Below are positions 3,728 through 11,418 of a stretch of 12,109 nucleotides of DNA, one piece after another. The notes below the pieces were generated by a model. That model was given only the letters and a program-made list of their open reading frames with translations. It was not told where the DNA came from and did not search any database. Source of the DNA: a virus (lineage: Duplodnaviria > Heunggongvirae > Uroviricota > Caudoviricetes). Every line of letters begins with the position of its first letter. The stretch's first letter is position 1. Location of the stretch: the IMG/VR virus record IMGVR_UViG_2531839476_000007, positions 1 to 12,109 of that record; one strand, 5' to 3'. Made by a program: the position numbers and the translations under genes.

Positions 3728-4102
3728 ATGATGACACTAAAACATTTTCTTGACCGCCCATTATGGGCGGCAGCCGCAGGCTATGACTTTAATTATATGG
3801 ATTGCATGTCTTATACCGCCAATGCATACGACCATTCCTTCAGTCTGCTGTTTAATTCTTTAAGAATATTGCCGCAAACAGAAGTTGGAGAGCTTCATTT
3901 ATGGCTATTGGGCTTTATCGCGGCTGTCGTTGGTATTGCTGTATGGCCTTTTATTTTCTGGCTGGTGGCTGTTGTAGTGTGGGTTAAGTGCAAGACATAC
4001 CGGAAAAAGTATTTCTTAGGTGATGGAATGACTGATATTGCCAAAATGAACATTGAAGAATGGACTAAGGAATGTGAAAAGAAATGGCGCAAAAAGAAAT
4101 GA
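3728..4102 (+). CDS. hypothetical membrane protein, 124 aa
   Basis: ORF-track ORF. Long hydrophobic segment LWLLGFIAAVVGIAVWPFIFWLVAVVVWV followed by a basic C-terminus (…KKWRKKK). The 3' end overlaps the next gene. Confidence 0.55.
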   Translation: MMTLKHFLDRPLWAAAAGYDFNYMDCMSYTANAYDHSFSLLFNSLRILPQTEVGELHLWLLGFIAAVVGIAVWPFIFWLVAVVVWVKCKTYRKKYFLGDGMTDIAKMNIEEWTKECEKKWRKKK

Positions 4103-4734
4103 CCAGAATCACTGAAGAGCGCATATCAGAGATTATTTCCCGTATCGAAATGTATGGTCACGGTGCTGGATATACGGCAGATGAAGTATTGGAAATAGCC
4201 CAGCAGATGCTGGCCTTGAGACAAAAAGAGCAACATGAAAGTAATACGTGTAGATTGAATTTTGAGCATTGGCTGGAACAGCAACGCGGGAAAATCGATG
4301 TGGACTGTGGTTGTGTGTCCACTGAAACATTCATGCACTGGCTGCGGGTAGCTTACGAGGCTGGCAACTATCCGGATATTCCGGATAGTTCGGTGCCAGC
4401 ACCAGGAAAGGGCGTCACCGGTGAACGTATCCGAATTAAGCCGCATGTTTATCGCGAACTGGTTAACCGTCTCCACGATACAGCGATCAAGTGTGCTGGC
4501 ACCCAGCAATTACGAGAAAGAATTAGCCGTGTTTTGGGCGACGTTATTACACCAGATCATCATAAACAAGCCGAGAAAAGTGGCCTGGAAAGGTGTCGCC
4601 TTGAGGCGGCATTAAACATTAAGCCGGGGCATACGCTTGGCATTATTGATGCACTATTGGTTCATAAGATGGCCAGGGCTTTATTGCCGCTGGTGGCTGA
4701 AAAGCATGAGGTGGACCATGCCAACGAAAGCTGA
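4084..4734 (+). CDS. hypothetical soluble phage protein, 216 aa
   Basis: ORF-track ORF. Start ATG 4084 overlaps the previous gene (alternative ATG 4099). No family recognised. Confidence 0.55.
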   Translation: MAQKEMTRITEERISEIISRIEMYGHGAGYTADEVLEIAQQMLALRQKEQHESNTCRLNFEHWLEQQRGKIDVDCGCVSTETFMHWLRVAYEAGNYPDIPDSSVPAPGKGVTGERIRIKPHVYRELVNRLHDTAIKCAGTQQLRERISRVLGDVITPDHHKQAEKSGLERCRLEAALNIKPGHTLGIIDALLVHKMARALLPLVAEKHEVDHANES

Positions 4735-5002
4735 ATTACAGGTGCGCGTAGATGAGCTTGAAAAAGAGAACGCGAGCCTCAAAAAAATGCTGTCGCGGGC
4801 GGAAAGGGAATTATCAGGCAAATTATTGCCAGAAGAACTGCCACCAGCAGATATACCTGATCGAGTGTCCTGGTGGATGAAGTATTTCCGTGCACCGTGG
4901 GAGGCGTTTTGGTGCTACGACCATCGCAGATGGTGTGATGAACTTGATAGCAATTTTCCCTACTTTGCGGAAGGGAACACCTGCCCTCAATGCAGGGGAT
5001 AG
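4718..5002 (+). CDS. hypothetical protein, about 94 aa, coiled-coil N-terminus and C-terminal CPQCRG
   Basis: In frame with track ORF 4637..5002. ATG 4718 is preceded by GAGGTGG (4708-4714) and overlaps the end of the previous gene. Last gene of the left-hand + strand block. Confidence 0.5.
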   Translation: MPTKAELQVRVDELEKENASLKKMLSRAERELSGKLLPEELPPADIPDRVSWWMKYFRAPWEAFWCYDHRRWCDELDSNFPYFAEGNTCPQCRG

Positions 5003-5337
5003 CATTTGACGAAATCGATCACCCTATCCTGAACTTCAGAAAGAAGGTCTTTTTCACGCGCCAGGACGTCAGGATATTGACGTTCTGGCCTTACCAGATG
5101 CCGGAGCTTCCCATTAAGCAGAATGGCCTCAGAAAACACTTTTACGCTGTGCTTTATCCCCTCTGTTTCACTTTTCAGCGTCAAAATAAAGCGCAATTGC
5201 TTATTAGCCTGATTCGGATTCAATACACGAATTTGCAGTTCGTCTATGCTGTTCCGCAATGGGATTGATGCCACCACACTGGTGCAGTCTCTGATTGTCT
5301 GAATTGAACGGCTAACATTGAGAACGTTATTGTGCAT
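4987..5337 (-). CDS. doubtful antisense ORF, 116 aa, in the gap between the left gene block and hot
   Basis: Only long ORF covering the 367-bp gap 5003-5369, but there is no convincing RBS (AGGAG lies about 14 nt upstream of the ATG) and no recognisable family. A + strand ORF 4990..5268 competes for the same DNA. Confidence 0.2.
   Translation of the reverse strand: MHNNVLNVSRSIQTIRDCTSVVASIPLRNSIDELQIRVLNPNQANKQLRFILTLKSETEGIKHSVKVFSEAILLNGKLRHLVRPERQYPDVLAREKDLLSEVQDRVIDFVKCYPLH
5060..5089. repeat. 12-bp-stem inverted repeat (hairpin) centred on GACGTC
   Basis: gccaggacgtca (5060-5071) / ggatat loop / tgacgttctggc (5078-5089); 11 Watson-Crick pairs plus one G-T. Lies 58 nt after the stop at 5002. 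No adjacent U-tract on either strand. Confidence 0.5.
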
Positions 5338-5369
5338 GTGCCTGATCCACTAACTCCTGGAGGTTTCTT

Positions 5370-5621
5370 GTGTCAGATCGAAATATAGCAGCTAAAAGCC
5401 AGGAAGAGCGAGACAAGGTGAACGTAGACCTTGCCGCCAGCGGCGTTGCTTACAAAGAACGGCTGAATATACCTGTGATTGCAGAGCAGGTGGCCCGTGA
5501 GCAACCGGAAAACCTGCGCGCCTATTTCATGGAACGGCTACGGCACTACCGGCAGTTAAGCCTCCAGTTGCCAAAAGGGAGCGATCCGGTGTATCAGAAC
5601 GAGGATGCACCAAAAAAATAA
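5370..5621 (+). CDS. hot: Hot, homolog of the DNA polymerase III theta subunit (HolE), 83 aa
   Basis: GTG 5370 is preceded by GGAGG (5359-5363). The core [43 protein letters not shown] matches my recollection of E. coli theta ([43 protein letters not shown]). Position before humD fits the P1 gene order. Confidence 0.8.
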
Positions 5622-5680
5622 CGGCAAGATGGGGGAGAAATGTGATTAGCCCCCAGCGTGGCGCGCCTACAAACCCCGCT

Positions 5681-5726
5681 TTCACAAACTATGCCTTTTC
5701 AATGTATACTGTATGAATAAACAGTA
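5681..5726 (+). promoter_or_regulatory. SOS-type promoter with a LexA box overlapping the -10, upstream of humD
   Basis: -35 TTCACA (5681-5686), -10 TATACT (5705-5710), and TACTGTATGAATAAACAGTA (5707-5726), which fits the LexA consensus TACTG-N10-CAGTA. RBS GAGG 5732-5735 and ATG 5745 follow. Confidence 0.8.
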
Positions 5727-5744
5727 TCATTGAGGTAAAACGCT

Positions 5745-6134
5745 ATGGGCTTCCCTTCTCCTGCGGCGGATTATGTTGAAAGCCGAATTTCTCTTGATCA
5801 GCAGATAATTAGACATCCTTCAGCGACCTACTTCATGCGGGCAGCTGATAGCCATCACCGTGAGGGAATATTGCAGGGTGCTTTGCTGGTGGTTGATTCC
5901 TCGCTTACTCCGGTTGATGGTTCTCTGCTTGTGTGCGCTATGGAGGGTGAATATCGCATAAAGAGATACAGGAAGTATCCGCGCCAGCACCTGGAGGACT
6001 TAAGCACCGGGAAGAAAGAGGCGTTACCAGTAGATGACGATGGATACACGGGCAGTAATGCTGTTTTTGGTGTGATCACTCATGTCATCAATGATGCCCG
6101 AAGTGGGGAATTTGATGATTGTCCGGTTATTTAA
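5745..6134 (+). CDS. humD: HumD, a UmuD'-like S24-family protein lacking the UmuD N-terminal pro-segment, 129 aa
   Basis: Begins MGFPSPAADYVE…, aligning with UmuD residues just after its Cys24-Gly25 self-cleavage site (…CG/FPSPAADYVE). Ser in ADSH and Lys in YRIKRYRK align with the UmuD Ser/Lys dyad. An in-frame TAA at 5736-5738 rules out a longer N-terminus. Confidence 0.85.
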   Translation: MGFPSPAADYVESRISLDQQIIRHPSATYFMRAADSHHREGILQGALLVVDSSLTPVDGSLLVCAMEGEYRIKRYRKYPRQHLEDLSTGKKEALPVDDDGYTGSNAVFGVITHVINDARSGEFDDCPVI

Positions 6135-8690: not shown

Positions 8691-9884
8691 GTGACCTGGG
8701 ACGATCACAAGAAGAATTTTGCTCGCCTGGCGCGAGATGGTGGTTACACCATCGCACAGTATGCCGCCGAGTTTAATCTTAACCCTAATACCGCACGTCG
8801 TTATCTCCGTGCCTTCAAAGAAGACACCAGGACAGCGGACAGCCGCAAGCCAAATAAGCCAGTCAGGAAGCCTCTAAAAAGCATGATCATTGATCACGCT
8901 AATGATCAACGTGCATGTGATCACATTGTGGCTGAAATGGCTGAAAAACAAAGAGTTAATGCTGTTGTCAGTGCCGCAGTCGAGAACGCTAAGCGCCAAA
9001 ATAAGCGCATAAATGATCGTTCTGATGATCATGACGTGATCACCCGCGCCCACCGTACCTTACGTAATCGCCTGGAACGCGACACCCTGGATGATGATGG
9101 TGAACGCTTTGAATTCGAAGCTGGCGATTACCTGATAGATAACGTTGAAGCGCGGAAGGCCGCGCGCGCTATGTTGCGTCGGTCCGGGGCCGATGTTCTG
9201 GAAACCACTCTTCTGGAAAAGTCTCTTTCTCATCTCCTTATGCTGGAGAACGCCAGGGATACGTGTATTCGCCTGGTGCAGGAAATGCGCGATCAGCAAA
9301 AAGACGATGATGAAGGTACTCCGCCTGAATACCGTATCGCGAGCATGCTAAACAGCTGTTCCGCGCAGATAAGCAGCCTGATCAACACCATTTACAGCAT
9401 CCGGAATAACTATCGAAAAGAAAGCCGGGAGGCGGAAAAGCACGCTTTATCTATGGGGCAAGCTGGCATTGTTAAGCTGGCATACGAACGAAAGCGTGAA
9501 AATAACTGGTCAGTGCTGGAAGCGGCTGAATTCATCGAGGCGCATGGAGGAAAAGTGCCTCCCCTGATGCTGGAGCAAATCAAAGCCGATCTGCGTGCTC
9601 CTAAGACCAATACCGATGATGAGGAAAACCAAACAGCATCTGGCGCTCCATCACTTGAAGATCTGGATAAAATCGCGCGAGAACGGGCCGCCAGCCGCCG
9701 CGCTGATGCCGCATTGTGGATTGAGCATCGTAGAGAAGAAATTGCCGATATCGTCGATACAGGTGGTTATGGTGATGTCGATGCGGAAGGCATATCAAAC
9801 GAAGCATGGCTTGAACAGGATCTGGACGAAGACGAGGAGGAAGACGAAGAAGTTACCCGCAAACTGTACGGGGATGATGATTAA
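8691..9884 (+). CDS. pacA: PacA, small terminase / pac-site recognition subunit, 397 aa
   Basis: GTG 8691 with RBS AAGGAAG (8680-8686). Begins [28 protein letters not shown]… and contains the pac hexamer clusters within its 5' third, as described for P1 pacA. Stop overlaps the pacB ATG (TAATG at 9882-9886). Confidence 0.88.
8884..9042 (+). other. pac packaging site: 4 + 3 TGATC(A/G) hexamers, each carrying a GATC Dam site
   Basis: Left cluster TGATCA at 8884-8889, 8891-8896, 8903-8908, 8918-8923. Right cluster TGATCG 9014-9019 and TGATCA 9026-9031, 9037-9042. Span of about 160 bp inside pacA matches the recalled architecture of the P1 pac site. Confidence 0.8.
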
Positions 9885-11368
9885 TGGCCAGAAGTTGCGT
9901 AACGGACCCACGTTGGCGCGAGCTTGTGGCGCTATATCGTTATGACTGGATTGCGGCCGCTGATGTGTTGTTTGGGAAGACACCAACCTGGCAGCAGGAT
10001 GAGATCATTGAGTCCACGCAGCAGGACGGCAGTTGGACAAGTGTGACCTCCGGCCATGGTACTGGTAAATCGGATATGACGAGTATCATTGCAATACTCT
10101 TCATCATGTTTTTCCCCGGCGCTCGCGTCATTCTGGTCGCTAACAAAAGACAGCAAGTCCTTGATGGTATTTTCAAATACATAAAGAGCAATTGGGCTAC
10201 TGCTGTTAGCAGATTCCCGTGGTTGTCGAAGTATTTCATTCTTACAGAAACGTCTTTTTTTGAGGTGACTGGCAAGGGTGTTTGGACAATATTGATAAAG
10301 TCCTGTCGCCCCGGGAATGAGGAGGCGTTGGCTGGTGAACACGCCGATCATCTCTTGTATATCATCGACGAAGCGTCGGGTGTGAGTGATAAAGCATTCA
10401 GTGTGATAACAGGTGCGCTGACCGGTAAGGATAACCGTATTCTGCTTCTTTCCCAGCCTACGCGACCTTCAGGCTATTTCTACGATTCACACCACAGACT
10501 AGCTATTCGCCCGGGAAATCCTGATGGATTGTTTACTGCGATAATACTGAATAGTGAAGAATCTCCGCTTGTAGATGCAAAATTTATACGAGCAAAACTT
10601 GCGGAGTATGGCGGTCGTGATAACCCCATGTACATGATCAAAGTACGTGGTGAATTTCCCAAATCTCAAGATGGCTTTCTTCTTGGTCGTGATGAGGTTG
10701 AGCGGGCGACGCGGCGAAAGGTCAAGATTGCCAAAGGATGGGGCTGGGTTGCATGTGTTGACGTTGCTGGTGGCACAGGACGAGATAAGTCCGTTATTAA
10801 TATCATGATGGTGTCCGGCCAGCGAAATAAACGCCGTGTAATCAACTATCGTATGCTGGAATACACAGACGTTACAGAAACGCAGTTAGCCGCCAAGATT
10901 TTCGCAGAATGTAACCCAGAACGGTTCCCGAACATAACCATAGCTATTGATGGCGATGGCTTGGGGAAATCGACGGCTGATCTAATGTACGAACGCTATG
11001 GCATTACCGTCCAGCGTATCCGCTGGGGTAAAAAGATGCACAGCCGTGAAGATAAAAGCCTTTATTTCGATATGCGCGCTTTCGCGAATATTCAGGCGGC
11101 AGAAGCTGTAAAATCAGGGCGTATGAGGCTTGATAAGGGGGCTGCGACTATAGAGGAAGCATCAAAGATACCGGTAGGGATAAATTCCGCAGGTCAATGG
11201 AAGGTGATGTCAAAGGAAGATATGAAGAAAAAACTCAACCTGCACTCACCGGACCATTGGGATACATATTGTTTCGCTATGTTGGCGAACTATGTTCCCC
11301 AGGATGAAGTGCTTAGCGTCGAAGACGAAGCGCAGGTTGATGAAGCTCTGGCATGGCTTAATGAATAA
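9884..11368 (+). CDS. pacB: PacB, large terminase (ATPase/nuclease) subunit, 494 aa
   Basis: ATG 9884 coupled to the pacA stop. Walker A GHGTGKS and Walker-B-like [11 protein letters not shown] are present. Size and position match P1 pacB. Confidence 0.88.
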
Positions 11369-11418
11369 CTCATTAACCATGCCGGATAGAAACTATTGCG
11401 CGCTTTCGGGGTTGTCGT

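Follow-up and report, generated by a model that had tools for sequence, protein, structure and literature searches.

The 367 bp that precede hot in the stretch of viral DNA analysed here (12,109 nucleotides, referred to as the window) are occupied by a conserved - strand gene, 4987..5337, which we call gene A and which is a real protein-coding gene under purifying selection. Gene A encodes a basic alpha/beta protein of 13 kDa; its family is uncharacterised and confined to Enterobacterales, and the members, judging from their gene neighbourhoods, normally appear in a linked pair with a second gene, B, encoding a protein with a predicted GNAT fold. In the explanation that we regard as the best overall, to which we assign a probability of roughly 0.55, the copy in the window is a solo member of this cassette that would act in an antidote-like manner, and the strong hairpin in the interval is part of its coding sequence. 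Gene A itself is unremarkable, having already been annotated as encoding a hypothetical protein; what is new here is the context of its family, namely the A-B cassette with its predicted GNAT-fold partner and the solo copies around hot.

Positions 4500 to 5900 of the window share 99.9% identity with RCS47, an Escherichia phage and P1-like phage-plasmid (Punavirus) in which window position 4500 corresponds to NC_042128 position 96444, and 98% identity with phage D6 over 86% of that length, while P1 itself aligns to them in patches only. The original prediction gave the size of the interval 5003-5369 correctly, as the preceding + strand ORF stops at 5002 and hot starts with GTG at 5370, but its description of the interval as a gap is at odds with the following layout:

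4718..5002, + strand: convergent gene upstream, 94 aa from the ATG at 4718, phrog_3797.
4987..5337, - strand: gene A, annotated CDS of 116 aa plus stop, with a match to phrog_2594.
4990..5268, + strand: 92-aa ORF in the mirror frame of A, not a gene (neutral ω, no family match).
5060..5089, no strand assigned: 12-bp inverted repeat in gene A codons 83-93 (RPERQYPDVLA).
5338..5369, no strand assigned: 32-nt spacer between the divergent start codons of A and hot, holding the Shine-Dalgarno sequence of hot.
5359-5363, + strand: Shine-Dalgarno sequence GGAGG of hot, conserved.
5370..5621, + strand: hot, DNA polymerase III theta subunit homologue (Pfam DNA_pol3_theta, E 2.8e-33; annotation).
5382..5390, - strand: candidate extended -10 element for A, TGcTATATT, found by eye in the first codons of hot.

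The upstream gene (phrog_3797, E 2.9e-59 on residues 28-121 of the ORF 4637..5002) overlaps the 3' end of A with its last 16 nt; PGAP annotates the equivalent position in plasmids, and the RCS47 RefSeq record carries no annotation there. Its product has a coiled-coil-like N-terminal half and a Cys/His-rich C-terminus, and PGAP names an identical protein 'antitoxin PHD' in plasmids. On the other side, A and hot are divergent, with start codons a constant 32 nt apart in all related loci. The left homology border of this block falls at 4987, exactly the stop codon of A, and the flank to the left of it varies between elements. The region is part of RD-5 (pap to lxr), a recombination hotspot of P1-like elements (PMC6906374).

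The 116-aa - strand ORF, which begins with ATG, is present as originally described. It corresponds to RCS47 FDJ53_gp049 (YP_009624953), D6 orf106 and, in RefSeq plasmids, PGAP WP_000551789, all of which are labelled hypothetical protein, and its product (13.4 kDa, pI 9.3) is a full-length match to phrog_2594, with residues 2-116 aligned to positions 1-115 of the 118-position profile (E 1.1e-46). An exhaustive HMMER search returned 11 representatives at 50% identity and a profile search about 115 clusters at 90% identity, in both cases all from Enterobacterales and named 'hypothetical'. The homologues reach down to 27-48% identity with the motifs RSIQTIRDCT and PxxQYP kept, the latter being P84-x-x-Q87-Y88-P89 in the window. 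Of 5426 complete E. coli genomes, 105 carry gene A, 102 times on a plasmid (about 90-100 kb). It is also present in about 100 PLSDB plasmids and 35 IMG/VR contigs, and in the great majority of these plasmids and viral contigs the reading frame has stayed intact.

Counting changes by codon position in eight close alleles gave too few differences, and one frameshifted record (L004) distorted the counts, so selection was measured as dN/dS on more divergent alleles. Between the window and the most divergent allele (L031/L032) there are 25 synonymous and 14 non-synonymous differences in A, which gives a dN/dS of 0.13 at a dS of 0.41; the ratio ranges from 0.13 to 0.25 within the P1-like alleles, and that of hot in the same loci (0.13-0.15) equals that of A. 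Indels among the alleles are in frame. Aligned across P1-like genomes, the - strand frame of A is conserved and the competing + strand frame is not: ω of the + frame was 1.15-2.0 against 0.13-0.25 for the frame of A in four of five comparisons, with 0.59 in the fifth (L072), which holds only 9 substitutions. The + strand ORF 4990..5268 does exist, with 92 aa, as had been noted; its ATG is, however, replaced in L031 and followed by a stop in L005, and Pfam and PHROG profile searches returned no family for it. We rejected it as a gene on the grounds of neutral evolution and of the start codon lost in some alleles, and the same two observations mark it as a by-product of gene A. Of the earlier suggestion of a degraded or novel antisense gene, the antisense gene stands, with an intact and selected CDS, whereas degraded and novel do not, since the gene is already annotated.

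Since the N-terminus is shared across the family alignment, the ATG at 5337 is the right start. The claim that this start has no usable RBS was overstated: a weak GGA/GGGGA lies 8-9 nt upstream of it. AGGAG, at 16 nt from the ATG, is stronger but varies between alleles, in contrast to the GGAGG of hot on the opposite strand, so that A is left with the weak Shine-Dalgarno sequence only. The candidate element TGcTATATT (5390-5382 read along the - strand) is identical in all A-bearing alleles, the most divergent included; a sigma-70 consensus scan of both strands from 4600 to 5680 found no promoter, and a search for the -22 box of P1 late promoters (AAGTTACTT) near hot gave nothing above chance.

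AlphaFold2, run with a 47-sequence alignment, predicts for A a mixed fold of alpha helices and beta sheet with a pLDDT of 85.7 and a pTM of 0.81. Neither A nor B matched Pfam, NCBIfam or PADLOC, whether searched as single sequences or with every alignment member, and the PADLOC-DB 2.0 defence models gave no match to either at E values up to 1. PDB searches with sequence profiles of A and B returned chance-level matches only, a fold search of A against the viral structures of BFVD found nothing below E 0.066, and no DNA-binding domain was detected in A by sequence or fold. Literature searches under the accession numbers and locus tags of A and B returned nothing on either protein.

The original prediction had also raised the possibility that the P1 locus lxr corresponds to something in this interval. 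In the P1 annotation, lxr (573 nt, - strand, 190 aa) sits between hot and humD, and the slot upstream of hot is taken by upfM, upfN and upfO on the + strand; nothing similar to any of the four was found anywhere in the window, Lxr being searched by both tblastn and blastp. Given this position in P1 and the lack of similarity, the suggestion is wrong. These P1 genes and A belong to the same variable region around hot, RD-5, and lxr resembles A in lying on the - strand, but it differs in position, in length and in sequence, while upfM, upfN and upfO occupy the slot of A in P1 only and are absent from the window. In the window, hot and humD are separated by a 123-nt spacer with a consensus LexA box, CTGTATGAATAAACAG, at 5709-5724, which is overlapped by a sigma-70-like promoter, TTCACA-18-TATACT (5681-5724); in P1, lxr shares the LexA box before humD, and it is absent here. 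For the annotation of this region, it follows that there is no unexplained gap before hot, that the - strand CDS is real and the + strand ORF spurious, and that lxr is absent from this variant of P1.

The family of A takes a different form outside P1-like elements. In every non-P1 locus examined, an A gene of 127-140 aa (pI 9-10) is followed by a B gene (phrog_3307) that encodes an acidic protein of 233-262 aa (pI about 5), with a 16-nt overlap between A and B in seven of the eight pairs, SSU5 itself having B annotated 32 nt downstream of A (SSU5_031/032). The pair is found (i) in SSU5 itself and in SSU5-like phage-plasmids from E. coli, Klebsiella and Cronobacter, flanked by the lysis genes on one side and by parA/parB-DnaB-primase on the other, (ii) in a P2-like prophage, whose A is more similar to that of the window (48.6% identity) than any other paired A found, and (iii) in chromosomal islands set among housekeeping genes, between tldD and aaeR in Pectobacterium and between rep and gppA in Erwinia. 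These islands are bare A-B pairs (L021 6001-7136; L024 6001-7166), with no integrase visible nearby. A and B diverge together (Spearman 0.83 and 0.71), and a profile-profile comparison found no homology between them. The structure predicted for B has a GNAT (acetyltransferase-like) fold, and Acetyltransf_1 is the commonest sub-threshold Pfam match among its members. Palindromes occur upstream of A in some of the cassettes (L008, L024, L037), inconsistently, and there is none in the window; in a DNA search of E. coli genomes, only 2 of 45 matches covered the cassette, B being too divergent for a search at the DNA level. A-B is a mobile cassette, and a previously unstudied family gains a context, that of a mobile two-gene cassette in the two commonest groups of phage-plasmids of Enterobacteriaceae.

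In the window, the gene stands alone. A tblastn search with five B proteins found nothing better than E 0.26, the - strand downstream of A faces the converging + strand gene in the place of B, and the copy accordingly falls outside the definition of the cassette used here (a phrog_3307 gene directly downstream, with the 16-nt overlap). The A proteins of P1-like elements have a C-terminal linker about 20 residues shorter than those of paired A, and that of the window is only 43-49% identical to any paired A found. They are otherwise recognisable members of phrog_2594: RCS47 gp049, D6 orf106 and SSU5_031 share with the A of the window the same N-terminus and both motifs, and it is the solo state and the short linker that set the P1-like copies apart from the SSU5-type, prophage and chromosomal members, which are paired with phrog_3307. 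Solo A is kept under purifying selection in the window and in about 100 P1-like plasmids.

Some P1-like plasmids hold a second solo paralogue, P0116, of 117 aa and 66% identical to E. coli SSU5-type A, on the + strand just downstream of hot, where P1 has lxr (5001-5354 in L027, L029 and L030, 2161-2511 in L005 and L007, and 5001-5354 in L028). P0116 does not contain the PxxQYP motif; some elements hold both paralogues, and L028 holds P0116 only. This second paralogue indicates that P1-like elements acquired solo A at least twice, on either side of hot. Truncated versions of A of 64-77 aa and frameshifted copies also exist. In the Salmonella plasmid pSa1423-90k (L004, 1473-1923), the A region shows several frameshifting indels, and 7 nt are duplicated beside the hairpin; the record is unannotated across this region, and the changes reflect either a pseudogene or assembly errors; L075 has a 1-nt insertion in a hairpin arm. 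Elsewhere in loci L027-L035, downstream of phd/doc, a - strand block with a Tad2-like protein (PF11195), a dUTPase and two unknown proteins replaces the pdcA/pdcB region of the window.

With regard to what the solo gene does, two readings are about equally probable, and both are tentative. By analogy, solo A might be an antidote-like or modulating partner of B-type proteins: acting through the same interface as in the A-B pair, it would bind those produced in its host by other elements, and would thereby benefit a P1-like element that shares, or invades, a cell with an A-B cassette. Several observations speak against this. The charges of the pair, basic for A and acidic for B, are opposite to those usual for antitoxin and toxin; A has no RHH or HTH domain of the kind typical of type II antitoxins; the databases of families and defence systems, as described above, recognise neither protein; and the low identity to any paired A makes it uncertain that the A of the window would recognise a B protein. 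For the best explanation as a whole, it also counts that some A alleles are truncated or frameshifted and that the adjacency to hot may only reflect the RD-5 hotspot (PMC6906374).

Alternatively, the function of solo A may have nothing to do with B, for example if A is a small basic nucleic-acid-binding or regulatory protein acting on hot/humD or on a target in the host. The high pI, the constant 32-nt divergent pairing with hot, the presence of two independent solo A genes flanking hot, purifying selection where B is missing, and the distance from any paired A would all fit such an autonomous role. On the other hand, searches by sequence and by fold detected no DNA-binding domain, every member examined outside P1-like elements is paired with B, and the adjacency of A and hot is explained by the known recombination hotspot in which hot lies.

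The hairpin described by the original prediction is present at 5060-5089, with arms of 12 nt (5060-5071 and 5078-5089) that are complementary at 11 of 12 positions and, as had been noted, with no U-tract on either side. It is not centred on GACGTC: this hexamer (5065-5070) is in the left arm, and the centre is the loop GGATAT. The structure is coding sequence, overlying PxxQYP, the most conserved motif of the A family, and it is stronger than expected by chance. The single mismatch of the arms is G-U in + strand RNA and A-C in - strand RNA; folded as + strand RNA, the sequence reaches -22.1 kcal/mol with 13 pairs including the G-U (z -5.75, none of 200 shuffles as good), against -17.7 kcal/mol (z -3.1) in the sense of A. 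It ranks in the top three of all 40-nt folds on the + strand of the window (12.1 kb) and is more stable than the best fold (-21.0) in any of 20 block-shuffled windows. Rfam gave no family at its gathering threshold; its one match, mir-67 (5339-5423, - strand, 25 bits against a gathering threshold of 53), is over the start of hot, outside the hairpin, and is a chance match. In the window, the strongest local fold on both strands is a near-perfect palindrome, CAACTATCCGGA-TAT-TCCGGATAGTT, at 4360-4400 (+/-) within the coding region of ORF 4084..4734 (-28.9 kcal/mol, z -5.7); a further hairpin at 11347-11386 (+; -24.4 kcal/mol, z -5.3), with no obvious U-tract, spans the stop of a 494-aa ORF, 9884..11368, whose position is consistent with pacB.

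Roughly 50 P1-like loci carry the gene, and the 48 of them that span the hairpin were compared. Three differences are transitions: the G-U position of the reference, T>C at sense position 20, and G>A at position 39. Each of them leaves the + strand RNA paired and produces an A-C mismatch in the mRNA of A. In one allele a G-C pair is regained; two further differences, both transversions, unpair the ends of the stem. Across alleles, the + strand fold ranges from -17.9 to -25.0 kcal/mol, while the sense fold drops to -8.6. As the natural variants preserve pairing only as + strand RNA, the suggestion of a protein-binding DNA palindrome is disfavoured, and the pattern mildly suggests selection on a + strand hairpin RNA, antisense to A. 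Any role of the hairpin itself would be expected in + strand RNA, past the end of the converging operon.

Compatible with the best explanation is, then, a reading in which the hairpin is a + strand RNA element embedded antisense in A, serving the operon that converges on A and reads into hot by stabilising its 3' end, offering a processing site or acting as a partial barrier to transcription. We regard this as possible but doubtful. In its favour are the stronger fold of the + strand, its rank in the window and its position beyond all 20 shuffles, the three of three transitions that keep + strand pairing together with the restored G-C pair, its location 58 nt past the stop of the converging gene, and the lack of a hairpin at the QYP motif of five paired distant homologues (z -0.7 to +1.7), which are not antisense to an operon. 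Yet a bias of three transitions out of three towards one strand has a p of only about 1/8, pairs at the stem ends are lost through two transversions, there is neither a U-tract nor an Rfam match, and the invariant PxxQYP codons constrain the arms as well, so that the conservation of the hairpin does not go beyond coding constraint. Its G+C-rich stem of 12-13 bp, its short loop and its location downstream of a + strand stop are shared with Rho-independent terminators; unlike these, it has no U-tract on either strand and its stem lies inside coding sequence. An intrinsic terminator was rejected, as there is no T-run on either strand and the terminator scan did not report the stem.

A more far-reaching reading, which we consider improbable, combines these elements: A-B would be a new toxin-antitoxin, addiction or abortive-infection module, with a divergent GNAT-fold effector and a small non-RHH partner, distributed over SSU5-like phage-plasmids, P2-like prophages and chromosomal islets; P1-like elements would have captured the antidote A twice, which would let them coexist with, displace or infect cells carrying A-B; and the hairpin, as a + strand RNA element lying antisense within A, would regulate read-through of the converging operon into A and hot.

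Much less probable still is a decaying, non-functional remnant of the cassette that has lost B. The missing partner, the linker about 20 aa shorter than in paired A and the truncated and frameshifted copies would fit such a remnant, but a dN/dS of 0.13, equal to that of hot, makes it very unlikely, and the ORF is intact in most copies, its indels are in frame and its predicted fold is confident. A reading in which the - strand of the interval codes for nothing and the + strand ORF, the lxr locus or a small RNA is the actual feature is scarcely credible, since the + frame, open though it is over about 92 codons in all alleles, evolves without constraint, loses its ATG in some alleles and matches no family, and lxr lies elsewhere in P1 and Rfam reports no RNA here above threshold.

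Compared with known two-gene systems, the cassette differs in several respects from the type II toxin-antitoxin systems with GNAT toxins, TacAT, AtaRT, KacAT and ItaRT. Their antitoxins are RHH/DUF1778 proteins, while A is a basic alpha/beta protein that contains no such domain; the possibility that A is an RHH/DUF1778 antitoxin was rejected, given the predicted fold and the lack of a match in Pfam and NCBIfam. B, at about 250 aa, is longer than the GNAT toxins (about 170 aa), its acetyl-CoA motif is only partly recognisable, the pattern of charges in the pair is reversed, and there is no match at the sequence level. A parallel for the solo gene may be found in orphan antitoxin and immunity genes, such as Dmd of T4, which acts against RnlA/LsoA, and the chromosomal ccdA-type anti-addiction genes. 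Like these, solo A is the lone small partner of a two-gene module, kept by selection on a mobile element, and it shares its hosts with elements that carry the full module; the likeness is one of analogy only. Phage-plasmids often carry resistance genes, and if A-B should prove to be an addiction or defence module to which solo A is the antidote, the region upstream of hot would offer a case of conflict between phage-plasmids.
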